Assembly (NCBI GenBank): GCA_032127075.1
Contig: JAQAZZ010000008.1
Span: forward strand, 7,724 to 71,723
Source: Micrococcales bacterium
Lineage (GTDB): Bacteria; Actinomycetota; Actinomycetes; S36-B12; GCA-2699445
Reading direction: 5' to 3'
DNA: 64,000 bases
Shown: in pieces, positions 55,598-64,000 of the stretch
Layout of the letters: every line of letters starts with the position of its first letter
Position numbering within the stretch: position 1 is the stretch's first letter
The notes under the pieces: generated by a model
What the model was told of the DNA's origin: nothing
Databases searched by the model: none
Seen by the model: the letters and a program-made list of their open reading frames with translations, nothing else
Made by a program: the position numbers and the translations under genes

Positions 55598-56056
55598 ATG
55601 AACTGCCCTTTCTGCCGGGAGTCCGACTCGCGGGTCATCGATTCGCGCGCCACCGACGACGGTGCGTGCATCCGCCGCCGGCGCCAGTGCACCAACTGCG
55701 ACCGGCGTTTCACGACCCTGGAGACACCCAGCCTGAACGTGATCAAGCGCAGTGGCGTTTCCGAGCCTTTCAGCCGCGGCAAAGTGATCTCGGGCGTGCG
55801 CAAAGCCTGCCAGGGTCGCCCCGTCGGCGAGGATGACCTGGCGTTGCTCGCCCAACGGGTGGAAGACACCATCCGACAGTCCGGCATGGCGGAGATCCCC
55901 AGCGGCGAGGTCGGCCTGGCGATCTTGGCTCCGCTTCGCGACCTCGACGAGGTGGCCTATCTGCGTTTCGCGTCCGTCTACCGCGGCTTCAGCTCTTTGT
56001 CGGACTTCGAGAAGGAGATCACGTTCCTGCGCGACGACCGGCACGCCCCGCACTGA
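55598..56056 (+). CDS. nrdR: Transcriptional repressor NrdR (Zn-ribbon + ATP-cone)
   Basis: ATG 55598 lies 8 nt after AAGGAGG; the track start 55589 is rejected. [17 protein letters not shown]...[10 protein letters not shown] is the Zn ribbon. The ATP-cone follows. Confidence 0.95.
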
Positions 56057-56124
56057 CAGCCCGTCCCCAGCACAACACACCCGCCCCACCAACTTCCCCC
56101 CCGTTCGAAACAAGGAGACCGAGG

Positions 56125-58944
56125 ATGACGCAAACCCCCCATGACGAGACAGTGTCGGGCCAGACCGCACCGACCCGCCGGAACCGCTCACGCGGACTTC
56201 CGATCAAGCGCGTGTTCAGCACCGAAGGGGTTCACCCCTATGACGAGGTGACCTGGGAGCGGCGCGACGTCGTGCAGTCCAACTGGAAGACGGGCGAGAC
56301 GGTCTTCGAGCAGCGCGGAGTCGAGTTCCCCGAATCGTGGAGCGTGAATGCCTCCACGATCGTGACGTCGAAGTACTTCCGGGGTGCGCACGGCTCCGAC
56401 GCCAGGGAATGGTCGCTTCGGCAGTTGATCGACCGCGTGGTCGACAGGTACGTGACCGCGGGCAGGGAGAACGGCTACTTCCCCGCCGACGCCGATGCCC
56501 TTGTGTTCGGCGAGGAGCTGACCTGGCTGCTGCTGCACCAGTACTTCTCCTTCAACTCCCCGGTGTGGTTCAACGTGGGCACCTCCAGCCCACAGCAGGT
56601 GAGCGCCTGCTTCATCCTGTCGGTGGACGACACCATGGACTCGATCCTGAACTGGTACCGGGAAGAGGGCCTGATCTTCAAGGGCGGCTCCGGTGCTGGG
56701 CTGAACATCTCTCGGATCCGGTCTTCGAAGGAGTTGCTGCGCTCATCCGGCGGAACCGCCTCGGGCCCTGTGTCGTTCATGCGTGGCGCCGACGCCAGCG
56801 CCGGAACCATCAAGTCGGGAGGGGCGACACGACGTGCGGCCAAGATGGTCGTCCTCGACGTGGACCACCCCGACATCGAGGAGTTCATCGAGACGAAGGT
56901 CCGCGAGGAGGAGAAGATCCGGGTCCTGCGGGATGGCGGGTTCGACATGGACCTCGGCGGCAAGGACATCGCGTCTGTCCAGTACCAGAACGCCAACAAC
57001 TCCGTGCGCGTCTCCGACGAGTTCATGCGGGCGGTGGAGGGCGACGACGAGTTCGGTCTGAAGGCGCGCACCGACGGCACGGTGGTCGATACCGTCAATG
57101 CGAACAAGCTCTTCCGCTCGATGGCGGAGGCGGCTTGGGCCTGTGCGGACCCCGGTATCCAGTACGACGACACCATCAACGACTGGCACACCAACCCGGA
57201 GAGCGGCCGCATCACCGCGTCCAACCCGTGTTCGGAGTACATGAGCCTGGATGACTCCTCGTGCAATCTGGCTTCGCTGAACCTGATGAAGTTCCTGGCC
57301 GCCGACGACAGCTTCCAGGTCGAGCGCTTCGTCAAGGCCGTCGAACTTGTGATCACCGCGATGGACATCTCGATCTGCTTCGCGGACTTCCCGACCGAGG
57401 CGATCGGGAAGACCACCCGCGACTACCGGCAGCTCGGCATCGGGTATGCGAATCTCGGGGCTCTGCTCATGGCCGCGGGACTGCCGTACGACTCCGACGG
57501 CGGCCGTGCGCTGGCAGCGGGAATCACCTCGCTGATGACAGGCGTCGCCTACCGTCGCAGCGCCGAACTGGCGGGGGTCGTCGGCCCCTACCAGGGGTAT
57601 GCGCGCAACGCCCGGGCACACGCGCGAGTCATGCGCAAGCATTCTGCGGCCACCGACGCCGTACGGTCGGTTTCCACACTGGACCGGGACGTCCTGCGGG
57701 CCGCGGCGGACTCGTGGCACAAGTGCCTGGAGATCGGGGAGAAGAACGGCTGGCGCAACGCCCAGGCGAGTGTTCTCGCCCCGACGGGGACCATCGGTTT
57801 CATGATGGATTGCGATACCACCGGCGTCGAACCTGACTTCTCGCTGGTCAAGTTCAAGAAGCTCGTCGGCGGCGGATCCATGCAGATCGTCAACAACACA
57901 ATCCCGCGGGCGCTGCGCAAACTGGGCTACGCGGGGGAGACCATCGAAGCGGTGGTCGAACATATCGCCGAGCACGGCAACGTAGTCGGCGCCCCCGGCC
58001 TGCGTGACGAGCACTACGCGATCTTCGACTGTGCCGTGGGTGATCGGGCAATATCGCCGATGGGCCATGTCCGGATGATGGCCGCCGTCCAGCCGTTCCT
58101 TTCCGGAGCGATCAGCAAGACCGTGAACATGCCGAGCGAGGCGAGCGTCGACGACGTGGCGGAAATCTACTTCGAGGGATGGCGCCTCGGGCTGAAGGCG
58201 CTGGCAATCTACCGGGATGCCTCCAAGGTGGGTCAGCCGTTGTCGGAGTCGAAGAGTTCGACCGCTGCGGAGGATGTGCCGGTGGTGCAGGGCCCGGTGC
58301 GGAGGCGTCTGCCGAAGAAGCGCCCCTCGCAGACGATCTCCTTCACCGTCGCCGGCGCCGAGGGCTACATGACGGCCGGCTCCTATCCCGACGACGGCCT
58401 CGGCGAGGTGTTCCTGAAGCTGGGCAAGCAGGGCTCCACCCTGGCTGGCGTCATGGATGCCTTCTCCATCGCGGTGTCCATCGCGCTGCAATACGGCGTG
58501 CCGCTCGAGGCGTTCGTGTCGAAGTTCGTGAACATGCGATTCGAGCCCGCCGGGCTGACCGATGATCCGGACATCCGCATGGCGCAGTCCATCATGGACT
58601 ACATCTTCCGCAGGCTGGCGCTGGACTATCTGCCCTACGAGGACCGGGCGGCGCTGAGCATCTTCACCGCTGAAGAACGGGCGGCTGCCCTGGCGGGCGA
58701 GCAGTCCGCGACGCCGGACGCAGAGGTGCAGCCCGATGGGGACTCGCTCCCGCAGCAGGTGGCGACGCCCGCTGCATCGGCTGGCGCCGATCCGGTGGCA
58801 CCGCACTCCACCGCCGAGCTGCTGGAGGTCATCACGGGCAAGTCTGCGGATGCGCCCCTGTGCCTGACCTGCGGCATCAAGATGCGTCCGGCGGGATCGT
58901 GCTACGTGTGTGAGGGATGCGGCTCCACCAGCGGCTGTTCCTAG
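56125..58944 (+). CDS. nrdJ: Class II (adenosylcobalamin-dependent) ribonucleotide reductase
   Basis: 939 aa. Motifs TSKYFRG, SACFIL, SNPCSEY and the C-terminal Cys-rich tail CLTCGIKMRPAGSCYVCEGCGSTSGC. AAGGAG precedes the ATG. Confidence 0.95.
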   Translation: MTQTPHDETVSGQTAPTRRNRSRGLPIKRVFSTEGVHPYDEVTWERRDVVQSNWKTGETVFEQRGVEFPESWSVNASTIVTSKYFRGAHGSDAREWSLRQLIDRVVDRYVTAGRENGYFPADADALVFGEELTWLLLHQYFSFNSPVWFNVGTSSPQQVSACFILSVDDTMDSILNWYREEGLIFKGGSGAGLNISRIRSSKELLRSSGGTASGPVSFMRGADASAGTIKSGGATRRAAKMVVLDVDHPDIEEFIETKVREEEKIRVLRDGGFDMDLGGKDIASVQYQNANNSVRVSDEFMRAVEGDDEFGLKARTDGTVVDTVNANKLFRSMAEAAWACADPGIQYDDTINDWHTNPESGRITASNPCSEYMSLDDSSCNLASLNLMKFLAADDSFQVERFVKAVELVITAMDISICFADFPTEAIGKTTRDYRQLGIGYANLGALLMAAGLPYDSDGGRALAAGITSLMTGVAYRRSAELAGVVGPYQGYARNARAHARVMRKHSAATDAVRSVSTLDRDVLRAAADSWHKCLEIGEKNGWRNAQASVLAPTGTIGFMMDCDTTGVEPDFSLVKFKKLVGGGSMQIVNNTIPRALRKLGYAGETIEAVVEHIAEHGNVVGAPGLRDEHYAIFDCAVGDRAISPMGHVRMMAAVQPFLSGAISKTVNMPSEASVDDVAEIYFEGWRLGLKALAIYRDASKVGQPLSESKSSTAAEDVPVVQGPVRRRLPKKRPSQTISFTVAGAEGYMTAGSYPDDGLGEVFLKLGKQGSTLAGVMDAFSIAVSIALQYGVPLEAFVSKFVNMRFEPAGLTDDPDIRMAQSIMDYIFRRLALDYLPYEDRAALSIFTAEERAAALAGEQSATPDAEVQPDGDSLPQQVATPAASAGADPVAPHSTAELLEVITGKSADAPLCLTCGIKMRPAGSCYVCEGCGSTSGCS

Positions 58945-62024: not shown

Positions 62025-63026
62025 ATGAACCTGCACCCGTGCCCCCTCGTCCGCACCACCCGTTTCGACCCCGCCCCGTGGCTTGTGGCGATCCCCTACC
62101 TGGTGGGCTACAACCCGGTGCTGAGCCTCGTCTGCGTGATGACCGACGGGGACAGGATCGTGGTGGTCGGCCGGTTGGACTGGCGCGACGCGGTACGGGA
62201 TCCGCGTGGGGTCGCCGCTCAGATGGTCCGACGCTCGCAGCATTCCGGCGCCACCGGCGCGATGCTGGTGGCGGTTCGCCCGGAATCCCCCGCCGGAGCC
62301 CCCGCGGCTCTCCGTGTCATCGGCGAGGTGTTCGCGAACAGCGGTGTGGATGTCATCTGGCAGGGTTGGATCACTTCCGAGCAATGGCGCAGCCCCGACT
62401 GCGACGGTGCCGGTTGTGCGCCGCACTTCCTGCCTGAGCCATCGTCCTCCGATCTCGTGCTGGAGTTGATCCTGGCCGGCGCGGCGCCGGCTGCAACGAG
62501 GCAAGAAGTCCTGGCCGAGGTCGCGCCAGCACCGGCCCAGGACCGACTGCCCGACGTCGTCGGGGCCGCAGACGGCTTGGAATCGTGGCGGGACCGGGCC
62601 GTGGCCGACTTCATGGAGCTTGTGGTCGCCGACGCGGTGCCGAACGACGACGACGTCGCACTGCTCGCGGCCGCTTGCCACGACATCAGGGTTCGCGACA
62701 CCGTGCTGCACCGAATCACCACGACAGGCAGCGGCGGCTGGGGAGCGGTGTGGCGGCTGACCACAGCCTCGATGCGGCGCGCCCCGCTCAGCCATGTCGC
62801 CAGTTTGGGAGCCGTCGCTGCGCTGGCCGCGTGGCAGATGGGGGACGGTCTGCGGGCAGGGGAGGCCCTCACCCGGGCGCGGGAGGCCGACCCCGACCAC
62901 AGCCTGTGCCAACTGCTGCAGCGGTCGCTGGATGGGGGGTATCCGCCTTCCGTCTGGGGTCAGGTGATGGCAGGGCTCACCGAGGAGGAATGCCGCTACG
63001 GCCGGGACCGCGACGCGGCTGCGTGA
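62025..63026 (+). CDS. DUF4192-like protein
   Basis: 333 aa. The N-terminus PWLVAIPYLVGYNPVLSLVCVM resembles the DUF4192 N-terminal block as I remember it. No catalytic motif was recognised. Confidence 0.65.
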   Translation: MNLHPCPLVRTTRFDPAPWLVAIPYLVGYNPVLSLVCVMTDGDRIVVVGRLDWRDAVRDPRGVAAQMVRRSQHSGATGAMLVAVRPESPAGAPAALRVIGEVFANSGVDVIWQGWITSEQWRSPDCDGAGCAPHFLPEPSSSDLVLELILAGAAPAATRQEVLAEVAPAPAQDRLPDVVGAADGLESWRDRAVADFMELVVADAVPNDDDVALLAAACHDIRVRDTVLHRITTTGSGGWGAVWRLTTASMRRAPLSHVASLGAVAALAAWQMGDGLRAGEALTRAREADPDHSLCQLLQRSLDGGYPPSVWGQVMAGLTEEECRYGRDRDAAA

Positions 63027-63067
63027 TCCGCTGGACGTCGTCGCAGGCATCGGCTATCTTTTTCCCA

Positions 63068-63173
63068 GGTCATGAGTCCCAGCGACAAGCTCCGGCTTGC
63101 TGGGCAGCAACCCTCCGACCGCGGTGGGGTGCTCCGGGTGAGGACCAGGTCGACAAGTCGGCAAGCGCGGGTC
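63068..63173 (+). promoter_or_regulatory. SAM-IV riboswitch aptamer
   Basis: The sequence is GGTCATGAGTCCCAGCGACAAGCTCCGGCTTGCTGGGCAGCAACCCTCCGACCGCGGTGGGGTGCTCCGGGTGAGGACCAGGTCGACAAGTCGGCAAGCGCGGGTC. It matches the remembered SAM-IV consensus blocks. The distal hairpin is shortened. It lies upstream of metY, the typical context. Confidence 0.85.
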
Positions 63174-63206
63174 TTGGTACACAAGGCCCCAGAACAGGTG
63201 GTCACT

Positions 63207-63245
63207 ATGTGTTGTTGTCGAATGATCGGTGTCGCCGGGGCCTGA
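63207..63245 (+). CDS. Candidate poly-cysteine leader peptide MCCCRMIGVAGA
   Basis: The ORF reads atg tgt tgt tgt cga atg atc ggt gtc gcc ggg gcc tga. AGGTGG lies 5 nt upstream. It sits between the SAM-IV aptamer and metY. Confidence 0.45.
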   Translation: MCCCRMIGVAGA

Positions 63246-63411
63246 GCGGCGCTTCACTGCGCTCCCCGGTCGACCGCGTGCGGCACTGCTGCCGTCCACG
63301 CCCATCCAGCGGTCAGATCTGCCCGCTCCATGGCCCCGCGCCGAACCCAGCCAAGAGTCAATCAGCGAAAAATCAGTCACCCTCGAAAACCATCATCAAG
63401 GAGAAGCACCA

Positions 63412-64000
63412 ATGAGCGACGCATGGTCGTTTGAGACCAAACAGATTCACGCCGGCCAGACCCCGGACGAGGCGACCAACGCCCGGGCGCTGCCGATCTA
63501 CCAGACAACTTCGTACACCTTCAACAACACCAACCACGCGGCGGATCTGTTCGCGCTGAAGGAACTCGGCAACATCTACACCCGGATCATGAATCCGACT
63601 CAGGCGGCGGTCGAGGACCGGTTGGCAGCCCTCGAAGGCGGTGTCGGGGCACTGCTGGTCGCCAGCGGGCAGGCAGCAGAGACGCTCGCGATCCTCAACA
63701 TCGCGGAGGCCGGGGACCACCTTGTATCCAGCCCCAGCCTCTACGGTGGCACCTACAACCTCTTTCACTACACGCTGCCGAAGCTCGGCATCGAGGTGAG
63801 TTTCGTCAGCGACCCGGACGATCCGCAGGCTTGGCGGGATGCGGTGCGACCGAACACGAAGCTGTTCTTCGCCGAGACGATCGCCAACCCGAAGAACGAC
63901 GTTCTGGACATCGAGGCGGTGGCGGGGATCGCGCACGAGGCCGGAGTCCCGCTGGTCGTCGACAACACGGTGGCAACGCCCTACCTGATCCAGCCGCTGA
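63412..64000 (+). CDS. metY: O-acetylhomoserine sulfhydrylase (MetY; PLP-dependent), N-terminal part; 3' end lies outside the window
   Basis: Not in the ORF track because it runs off the window edge. AAGGAGAAG precedes ATG 63412. The translation reads MSDAWSFETKQIHAGQTPDEATNARALPIYQTTSYTF...NIYTRIMNPT...SPSLYGGTYNLF... Confidence 0.95.
   Translation, partial: MSDAWSFETKQIHAGQTPDEATNARALPIYQTTSYTFNNTNHAADLFALKELGNIYTRIMNPTQAAVEDRLAALEGGVGALLVASGQAAETLAILNIAEAGDHLVSSPSLYGGTYNLFHYTLPKLGIEVSFVSDPDDPQAWRDAVRPNTKLFFAETIANPKNDVLDIEAVAGIAHEAGVPLVVDNTVATPYLIQPL

Follow-up and report, generated by a model that had tools for sequence, protein, structure and literature searches.

This analysis concerns the 5' leader of metY, which lies near the end of a 64,000-nt (64 kb) stretch of Micrococcales DNA (contig JAQAZZ010000008.1; the whole stretch is called the window below). 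In this leader an S-adenosylmethionine (SAM) riboswitch of the SAM-IV family is followed by a short cysteine-rich open reading frame (ORF), referred to here as the mini-ORF, then by a long spacer, and finally by the gene for an O-acetylhomoserine/O-acetylserine sulfhydrylase. The leader measures about 345 nt from the aptamer to the metY start, and it probably senses two or three sulfur signals, one after another. The following features were identified (SD, Shine-Dalgarno sequence):

63055-63060, + strand: TATCTT, a -10-like promoter hexamer (TANNNT), 7 nt 5' of the aptamer
63068-63173, + strand: SAM-IV riboswitch aptamer (RF00634), full length (model positions 1-116 of 116)
63165-63170, + strand: GCGCGG, the 3' tail of the aptamer, aligned to the conserved tail of the Rfam model and holding the 3' strand of pseudoknot PK-2
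63169-63189, + strand: switching hairpin, with 5' arm GGGTCTTG (63169-63176), loop GTACA and 3' arm CAAGGCCC (63182-63189)
63185-63190, + strand: GGCCCC, the proposed anti-SD (hairpin 3' arm plus the next C)
63196-63203, + strand: SD region of the mini-ORF, AGGTGG (63196-63201) followed by TC, partner of GGCCCC in the proposed helix GGCCCC / GG(t)GGTC
63207-63245, + strand: mini-ORF MCCCRMIGVAGA, 12 codons, start ATG 63207, stop TGA 63243-63245
63231-63274, + strand: predicted stem-loop (RNAfold), with the end of the mini-ORF as 5' arm (GTCGCCGGGG) and CCCCGGTCGAC as 3' arm, enclosing a small hairpin
63246-63411, + strand: untranslated spacer of 166 nt, C-rich and G-poor, a candidate Rho loading region, most extreme at 63290-63400
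63398-63403, + strand: metY SD, AAGGAG, within A-rich sequence and mostly unpaired by prediction
63412-64000, + strand: 5' part of metY (Pfam PF01053, E 1.2e-62), cut by the window end

The covariance search of the whole window gave a single Rfam family, RF00634, whose match at 63068-63173 scored 109.6 bits against a gathering score of 38 (E 2.6e-19). The leader is thus a full member of this family, and SAM is its presumed ligand. Both partners of PK-2 are present at conserved model positions, CCGCG in the P3 loop and CGCGG in the tail (63166-63170). In the cryo-EM structure of SAM-IV, PK-2 is made by the 3' end of the RNA (PMC6890682). The aptamer lies in the 5' untranslated region of metY, and an SD and an ATG begin 23-34 nt past its end, this ATG being the one that opens the mini-ORF and not that of metY. 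A preliminary description of the DNA, made from its letters, had placed a SAM-IV aptamer at 63068-63173, in agreement with the covariance search, and the positions it gave for the hairpin, SD, mini-ORF, stop codon and the metY SD and start all match direct reading of the sequence.

The metY start codon is ATG 63412. The product is a Cys/Met pyridoxal phosphate-dependent enzyme, and the top NCBIfam match was NF005872, bifunctional O-acetylhomoserine/O-acetylserine sulfhydrylase (E 5.7e-114). In relatives, metX is the next gene after metY. In 59 of 60 related leaders a hexamer of the form TANNNT starts 10-16 nt (mostly 13) before the first aptamer position. With a spacing so constant, transcription is likely to begin at the first or second base of the aptamer. 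According to a hexamer scan, TATCTT at 63055-63060 is the only TANNNT on the + strand between 61888 and 63742. Since the single hexamer lies 5' of the aptamer and none is internal, the aptamer, mini-ORF, spacer and metY are very probably carried on one transcript. As a separate observation, TANNNT hexamers are markedly scarce in this genome, with 98 observed against about 181 expected in 64 kb.

The 11 sense codons that follow the start of the mini-ORF include three for Cys and one internal Met. The Cys codons are consecutive TGT triplets (63210-63218), and they are followed directly by CGA (63219-63221) and the internal ATG (63222-63224). Among the coding ORFs of the window, Cys is encoded by TGC 24 times and by TGT 9 times, and CGA accounts for 28 of 423 Arg codons. 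Both TGT and CGA are therefore minor or rare codons in this genome.

The leader was compared with 80 loci encoding close MetY relatives, one genome per species (individual loci are given L numbers). A SAM-IV element was detected 5' of metY in 61 of them with Rfam, nhmmer returned the same 61, and the other 19 loci had none. In the short type of leader, seen in 16 leaders free of an upstream ORF (uORF), metY starts 35-51 nt after the GCGCGG tail, and nearer still in some Nanopelagicaceae. In the Cys-ORF type, which makes up 24 of the 61, an ORF of 5-12 codons with an SD stands at that same offset and metY begins 34-295 nt further downstream. The distance from the GCGCGG tail to the uORF start is 36-45 nt in 22 leaders; in two Nocardia the uORF begins 12-13 nt past the end of the aptamer. 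The rest of the leaders are longer without having a Cys ORF; two of them, L040 and L042, contain at this offset a short ORF that has no Cys codons.

The peptides encoded at this position have a common appearance. In the window the peptide begins MCCCRM, and others read MRCCCRM, MSCCPRM, MSCCRRM, MRCCPM, MCCCCRM, MSCCRM, MKCCHR, MCCLPCCC, MCCSICCC, MCSSCH and MCCRRMCSR (L076). Peptides with named hosts are MSCCRR in Aldersonia, MCCCRS and MCCCPS in Nocardia, MCMCP in Mycolicibacterium peregrinum and VRSC(R/Y/H) in Mycobacterium. The tandem arrangement is thus carried by Nanopelagicales-like metagenome-assembled genomes and by Nocardia, Aldersonia, Mycobacterium and Mycolicibacterium, and the cultured carriers include Nocardia halotolerans, Aldersonia kunmingensis and Mycolicibacterium peregrinum. 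The preliminary description had proposed an alignment of metY leaders from related genera, and in the present comparison the ORF offset recurred in 24 of 61 leaders with conservation of the Cys and Met codons.

Codon usage was counted over 26 short ORFs, namely those of the 24 Cys-type leaders and the Cys-free ORFs of L040 and L042. Cys codons made up 54 of the 199 sense codons, compared with 4.8 expected from composition (about 11 fold), and the other two frames of the same ORFs held 9 and 2. The choice of Cys codon was strongly biased (TGT 51 vs TGC 3). Twelve internal ATG codons were present, and the pair CGA-ATG was recurrent. The binomial P for the Cys enrichment is about 1e-40, a value that is inflated by the relatedness of the compared sequences, yet the effect is very large. 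Moreover, sister pairs retain the Cys codons while adjoining codons, ORF length and the type of stop codon drift, as in L020 (MCCLPCCC-TGA) and L026 (MCCSICCC-TAA), and also in L008 and L014. Since the Cys codons are kept while their surroundings change, the pattern of conservation, judged by sequence comparison, is characteristic of codons with a regulatory role and not of a peptide with a function of its own. The comparison is unambiguous in indicating that the mini-ORF is more than a chance occurrence.

The region between the aptamer and the first start codon appears to form a common platform. The hairpin at 63169-63189 overlaps the last 5 nt of the aptamer, so that the last two G of GCGCGG form its first two pairs, and a hairpin occurs at this place in nearly all related leaders. 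Both leader architectures share the same order of elements, with the hairpin right after GCGCGG, a C run, GAGGTC or GGAGGTC, and then a start codon. Within Mycobacterium one platform is found before metY itself in L061, L047, L073, L069 and L045 and before the VRSC... mini-ORF in L038, L044, L056 and L070. Since either the metY start or the mini-ORF start sits at the same offset behind the same SD platform, the riboswitch would be expected to gate whichever start codon is placed there. Control of the Cys mini-ORF by the riboswitch, rather than of metY directly, is well supported by this comparison.

The hairpin also suggests how the gate may operate. In mycobacteria its 3' arm together with the C residues behind it (ACGGGCCCCC) can form 9 of 10 pairs with the SD region GGAGGUCCGU, and in the window the duplex of GGCCCC with GG(u)GGUC has a predicted energy of -9.0 kcal/mol. 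Across 36 leaders the duplex between arm and SD averaged -11.9 kcal/mol when a leader was paired with its own arm and -9.7 kcal/mol when the arm came from a lineage with a different hairpin (p 4e-4). When the GCGCGG tail was blocked in folding, the minimum free energy (MFE) structure flipped to the anti-SD/SD helix in many relatives. These results suggest a probable SAM-dependent masking of the mini-ORF SD. The proposal in the preliminary description that the riboswitch gates a leader peptide and not metY is accordingly backed by the shared offset, the shared platform, the own-arm pairing and the codon conservation, although the specific alternative pairings that it put forward downstream were not supported (see below). 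Two further candidates were tried at the platform and set aside. Thermodynamic folding alone did not reproduce SAM-dependent masking of the SD, as mean accessibility moved only from 0.44 to 0.37 and was unchanged in the window. A pairing of the platform GGCCCC with GGGGCC at the end of the ORF, resembling a "segment 1:2" helix, was present in the window and in L003 and in no other relatives, and was treated as chance.

Cys/Met-rich short ORFs were also found 5' of metY in several of the 19 loci without SAM-IV. L002 has the leader ORF MSSLQMCMCCRMISIVGA (L002:1330-1433) and no aptamer, and L037 has MSSQMCRMPGMRQCDRP (L037:1257-1367) and no riboswitch. The ORF of L011 begins MASQMCMPC... and those of L066 and L080 end in ...RRMCR, again without a riboswitch. 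As an observation in its own right, these riboswitch-less metY leader ORFs appear to form an undescribed family of Cys/Met leader peptides in which the core TGT-CGA-ATG recurs.

L002 is the second-closest relative of the window (86% MetY identity), and its leader can be aligned with that of the window from TGTTG(T/C)CGAATGATC via GGGGCCTGAGC to CCCCGG (window 63264-63269). The 3' two-thirds of the mini-ORF aligns with the L002 leader ORF (...CMCCRMISIVGA). L002 possesses an intrinsic terminator, CCCCGGCGAATAGTCCGGGG followed by CTTTTCTTTT, of which CCCCGG is the 5' arm, and the end of its ORF, CGUCGGGG, can pair with this 5' arm as an antiterminator. Stalling of the ribosome at the Cys/Met codons of L002 would leave the antiterminator intact, while a ribosome at the stop codon would break it. 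In the window the helix 63231-63240 / 63264-63274 is homologous to this antiterminator-like helix, and L002 folds likewise; neither the alignment nor the terminator scans detected in the window the terminator 3' arm and U tract that are found in L002, and the helix there has no competing terminator. Because the homologous peptide precedes a classical terminator in L002, the leader peptide looks like an independent attenuator module. A stem over the leader-ORF stop codon had also been considered as a conserved feature of the family. It seemed recurrent by eye, but it was not above dinucleotide shuffles (combined p 0.48), and it is retained here solely as a homology with L002.

The spacer between the mini-ORF and metY contains 66 C and 40 G (C/G 1.65). 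Its 100-nt windows, with C/G of 1.55-2.05, correspond to the 98th to 99.9th percentile of the + strand of the whole window, and the gaps of the family have a mean C/G of 1.57 compared with 1.22 in metY coding sequence. No terminator-like site was found on the + strand in 62800-63500, and a second terminator scan gave none either; the promoter scan detected no TANNNT hexamer within the spacer. The earlier characterization of the spacer as C-rich, G-poor and lacking a U-tract terminator therefore agrees with the composition and the terminator scans. The metY SD had an unpaired probability of 0.47-0.63, whether or not a ribosome was modelled on the leader ORF. The preliminary description had proposed folding the leader with and without a ribosome on the mini-ORF, and the metY SD was open in both states. 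It had also pointed out that GAGCGG and CAGCGG can each pair with CCGCTC. These 6-nt complementarities are present, but the proposed alternative structures were unsupported, with no sign of conservation or of being above chance in a GC-rich leader.

With no terminator, an open metY SD, no internal promoter and a C-rich spacer, the most economical reading is a Rho-type control of transcript elongation. Such a control would fit known actinobacterial leaders (PMC11260477; PMC12360218). Taken on its own, the Rho step is a possibility that must be regarded with some doubt. Several other outputs were considered and rejected. An intrinsic terminator after the mini-ORF was absent from the window and from the other tandem leaders in the scans. 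For occlusion of the metY SD or start by the leader ORF, the change in accessibility was inconsistent when a ribosome was modelled, and duplex energies were the same as those of shuffles. Frames open across the spacer, which could allow coupling at ATGA, were no more frequent than in shuffles. A second uORF of the kind found in low-GC relatives is represented in the window by ATG 63330, which has no SD and is not conserved.

The output stage takes other forms elsewhere in the family. In the low-GC, Nanopelagicales-type leaders L010, L020, L026 and L027 the coupling looks clearer. Here a second, conserved mini-ORF lies between the Cys ORF and metY (L020:1392-1490, L026:1386-1490, L027:1393-1503 and L010:1362-1461, with the peptides MRPTNNPHTQF, MRPTNEPNTQL, MRYFVFQ... 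and MRYFKIQ...), and its SD is sequestered in a stem that follows the Cys ORF immediately. Of this stem, the 5' arm GCACCUCCAC is anti-SD-like and adjoins the end of the Cys ORF, and the 3' arm contains the SD. The second mini-ORF has its stop codon at, beside or overlapping the metY SD or start. The stem would be opened by a ribosome that has reached the last Cys codons, and the arrangement looks like a three-step translational relay. Leaders with a short gap (L030, L014 and mycobacteria) show complementarity of the metY SD region to either the Cys codons or the ORF end, which resembles the proven mechanism of Ms5788A (10.1101/834739). On the sequence comparison, the upstream module is conserved across the family and the output stage varies.

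These observations can be combined in a model with two modules. In the first, binding of SAM would stabilize PK-2, which involves the GCGCGG strand, and the adjoining hairpin would lose its outer G-C pairs. The freed 3' arm, GGCCCC, could then pair with the GGTGGTC SD region of the first start codon downstream and block initiation. The second module would be the 12-codon ORF with its slow, sulfur-reporting codons (three rare UGU, one rare CGA and one AUG), and the speed of the ribosome through this ORF would report the levels of charged tRNA-Cys and probably tRNA-Met. Ribosome speed would in turn decide passage across the 166-nt spacer into metY (and into metX in relatives), most likely during transcript elongation and by Rho. 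By analogy with L002, a stall at the Cys/Met codons would lead to read-through and rapid completion of the peptide to termination; translation of the mini-ORF and this direction of the Cys effect are both presumed.

A composite leader with two signals, consisting of a SAM riboswitch and a Cys/Met leader peptide, is considered fairly probable as a whole. A more detailed version is offered tentatively, at somewhat less than even confidence. In this version the leader has three inputs in series, where SAM-IV licenses ribosome entry, the peptide reads tRNA-Cys and tRNA-Met, and metY-metX would be switched on only when SAM is low and the sulfur amino acids are short. The modules found alone and together would represent a natural series of fusion, and an ancestral intrinsic terminator would have been replaced by a Rho-type C-rich spacer in the lineage of the window.

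A number of points weigh against this model. The translation of the mini-ORF, and the action of SAM, Cys and Rho at this locus, are predictions from sequence. The window SD had an accessibility of 0.22 in both states when the tail was blocked in the folding model, and the anti-SD helix of the window has just 6 bp, with a bulge. Kinship among the compared leaders inflates the P values, and in the closest relative, L001, the ORF (MFCSLRMR) holds a single Cys codon. The most C-rich segment, 63290-63400, is naked in every state, which does not readily fit with its protection from Rho by a 12-codon ORF. Furthermore, when a ribosome stalls at codons 2-6, the RNA downstream of it folds as it does with no ribosome present. 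An attenuator working by structure alone could then not tell "SAM-bound" from "Cys-starved", and no upstream segment was found that separates these two states. The model does not account for the off state of the SAM-bound, untranslated leader. Finally, coupling looks translational, via the second mini-ORF, in L020, L026 and L027, and the downstream mechanism is consequently not uniform.

The most probable of the alternatives is that SAM is the sole signal. The mini-ORF would then serve as a translated landing pad against polarity or decay at low SAM, and its Cys codons would carry no message on cysteine supply and might, for example, just slow the ribosome. The evidence for a gated start indeed requires translation and not Cys sensing, and the ORFs of L001, L022, L038, L044 and L070 have a single Cys codon, while those of L040 and L042 have none. 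A landing pad would not explain why Cys codons are enriched about 11 fold, why Met codons are enriched too, or why they are kept while their surroundings drift. It also leaves aside the homologous peptide that precedes a classical terminator attenuator in L002, as well as the Cys-rich short ORFs that are proven Cys-responsive attenuators in mycobacteria (10.1101/834739). This explanation is regarded as unlikely.

Translational attenuation as in the mycobacterial poly-Cys systems, a mechanism shown for Ms5788A (10.1101/834739), would operate without Rho, in that the untranslated ORF would pair with the metY SD or start and a stalled ribosome would free metY. In the Ms5788 case, a transcriptional fusion behind the leader that had an SD of its own showed no response. 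In some relatives the sequences are compatible with translational attenuation. ACAACA beside the metY SD is complementary to UGUUGU in L014 and in mycobacterial leaders, and in L030 the ORF end pairs with the metY SD, whose predicted accessibility rises from 0.23 to 0.52 when a ribosome is modelled there. The window itself has no ACAACA-type complement, its metY SD is predicted to be open in all states, and the duplex between the uORF and the metY start was not above shuffles, either in the window (p 0.25) or in the family (p 0.38), so that for the window such a mechanism appears distinctly improbable.

The strong preference for TGT over TGC (51 vs 3), despite GC-rich genomes, raises the question of whether the UGU run is an RNA element rather than a series of codons. 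It could be the U-tract of a SAM-induced terminator whose stem is the anti-SD/SD helix, or a partner of ACA-rich sequences of the platform. In the window, L012, L020 and L026 the terminator scan did flag the anti-SD/SD helix together with the TGTTGT behind it, and AGAACA 5' of the SD pairs with UGUUGU in the MFE structure of the window. The U-rich run, however, begins 6-10 nt past the foot of the helix, with the bases between often U-poor, and TGC does occur in L002, L004, L012 and L038. The run is always in frame with an SD-preceded start, with a stop within 12 codons, and the position of the Cys codons varies (N-terminal, C-terminal or single). These features make a structural role of the run very unlikely.

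It was also considered whether the functional uORF is not the mini-ORF but an overlapping frame, +2, of 69 codons that runs from GTG 63209 to TGA 63413-63415 and would act by termination-reinitiation like uPPE2-PPE2 (PMC11260477). This frame shares the SD of the mini-ORF, spans the entire spacer and ends in an ATGA overlap with metY; its open stretch begins 5' of the aptamer and reaches the metY start, with the same arrangement in L074 and nearly so in L057. In shuffled spacers, however, 13.9 frames open across the gap were expected compared with 13 observed, all three frames are open in the window (0.67 expected for each) owing to a stop-poor composition, and most relatives stop early or have no start in this frame, so that the proposal seems highly improbable. 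As a side observation, nearly all metY genes of the set start with ATGA or GTGA.

A mini-ORF that is simply a chance ORF in a long 5' untranslated region, with the riboswitch acting on metY by a long-range route, is barely credible given 24 leaders with an ORF at the same aptamer offset, an in-frame stop within 12 codons although stops are rare in such composition, and the very large if kinship-inflated Cys enrichment (binomial P about 1e-40), even though short ORFs are easily found and the ORF of the closest relative, L001, is degenerate.

The single parts of the composite leader are known, namely SAM-IV, poly-Cys attenuator ORFs, a uORF gated by a riboswitch, and the combination of an RNA sensor with a codon-rich ORF and Rho. 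A close likeness to the first module is the B12 riboswitch and uPPE2 of ppe2 in Mycobacterium tuberculosis (Kipkorir et al. 2024, PMC11260477), where an actinobacterial OFF riboswitch masks the SD of a short uORF, expression of the main gene depends on events at the uORF, and an intrinsic terminator is likewise lacking. That system differs in its ligand and aptamer class (B12 and not SAM-IV), and in that uPPE2 overlaps the PPE2 start and works by termination-reinitiation, whereas the metY mini-ORF ends 166 nt short of its gene. Moreover, uPPE2 is not described as enriched in codons for pathway amino acids.

The poly-Cys short ORFs reported by Canestrari et al. 2020 (10.1101/834739) resemble the second module, as they also have consecutive Cys codons before sulfur genes in Actinomycetota, with stalling at Cys being sensed. 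They are leaderless, at the 5' end of the transcript, and have no riboswitch, whereas the mini-ORF is located about 140 nt into the transcript behind a 106-nt aptamer and an SD. Their Cys tract pairs with a downstream SD, and such pairing was looked for in the window and not found. The metL peptide before metNIQ in Streptomyces lividans (PMC8079986) is rich in Cys, Met and Arg (…GARCMCRRMCAF, CMCRRMCAF) and recalls L076 in its C-R-R-M-C pattern and the window in its CRM core, but it was reported as leaderless, has no riboswitch and regulates a transporter operon. Cys leader peptides had been predicted in 2005 (PMC1262725).

Attenuators of the trp/his type, and L002, share with the window the use of end-product codons and a stop codon within a segment that pairs with the next segment downstream. 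Unlike these, the window has neither a terminator 3' arm nor a U tract, and initiation of its ORF appears to be placed under a riboswitch. In the Salmonella mgtA/mgtL leader (reviewed in PMC12360218), an RNA-read Mg2+ signal and an ORF whose proline codons read tRNA charging are likewise combined in one leader, with output through a Rho utilization (rut) site and Rho and not through an intrinsic terminator. Both the phylum and the RNA are unrelated, and translation of mgtL reshapes the leader, whereas the metY aptamer lies wholly upstream and appears to license the ORF, i.e. in series. The same review describes tnaC, where a short ORF is also followed by a long untranslated C-rich spacer, and in metY too the behaviour of the ribosome would decide Rho termination. 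In tnaC the stall occurs at a stop codon beside rut and is caused by free tryptophan, whereas the codons of the metY ORF are at its 5' end and the signal would be tRNA charging. Taken together, the leader of the window departs from the Canestrari type in being SD-led and lacking SD occlusion, from classical attenuators in lacking a terminator, and from the uPPE2 type in lacking a stop/start overlap.

A search of the full-text literature, covering work on poly-Cys short ORFs, uORFs and Term-seq in M. tuberculosis, the B12-uORF system, VapC4 and the discovery of non-coding RNAs, gave no instance in which a SAM-IV or other SAM riboswitch and a Cys/Met leader peptide are arranged in series; the original SAM-IV report and most other subscription papers lay outside the search. 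This is in line with the preliminary description, which knew of no such tandem for SAM-IV.

Riboswitches and leader-peptide attenuators are usually regarded as alternative controls of biosynthetic operons. In the leaders described here the two types of control seem to be wired in series, and the arrangement recurs in 24 of 61 SAM-IV/metY leaders. If it is functional, one mRNA would integrate SAM, the end product of the methyl cycle, with the charging of both sulfur amino acids, at an enzyme placed at the branch where sulfide enters homocysteine and possibly, via its bifunctional activity, cysteine. The natural series of leaders (riboswitch only, peptide only, once with a textbook terminator, and both) makes the evolution and the logic of composite leaders testable. 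The arrangement occurs widely, is modular and can be tested in cultured carriers, each functional step being drawn from sequence. It is also a warning for annotation, since the regulated gene may begin further downstream than the first start codon behind a translational riboswitch.

Some further observations were made during the comparison. In L009, L019 and L035 (at about 1386-1500), 116-118 nt separate the SAM-IV tail from metY, and no upstream ORF is present. These leaders have in common the segment ...CCGGACCARCGUCACACCCGCAACRGCCC..., which may be another add-on element. The 295-nt spacer of L003 (L003:1340-1490) contains repeats resembling the CGAATG core, with GCATGCGAATCACGATCGGAATGCC occurring twice and then several copies of CCGAATGC or CCGAATAC.

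Within the window, the strongest excess of C over G on the + strand is located at 56001-56160 (C/G up to 2.7 per 100 nt), exceeding that of the metY spacer. The gene 5' of the riboswitch (62025-63026) encodes a DUF4192 protein (Pfam E 2.9e-39) and ends 29 nt before the promoter hexamer. Lastly, about 11,000 codons of metY coding sequence were counted (the window plus 23 loci) and just 2 of them encode Cys, so that the enzyme that assimilates sulfide is itself almost free of cysteine.

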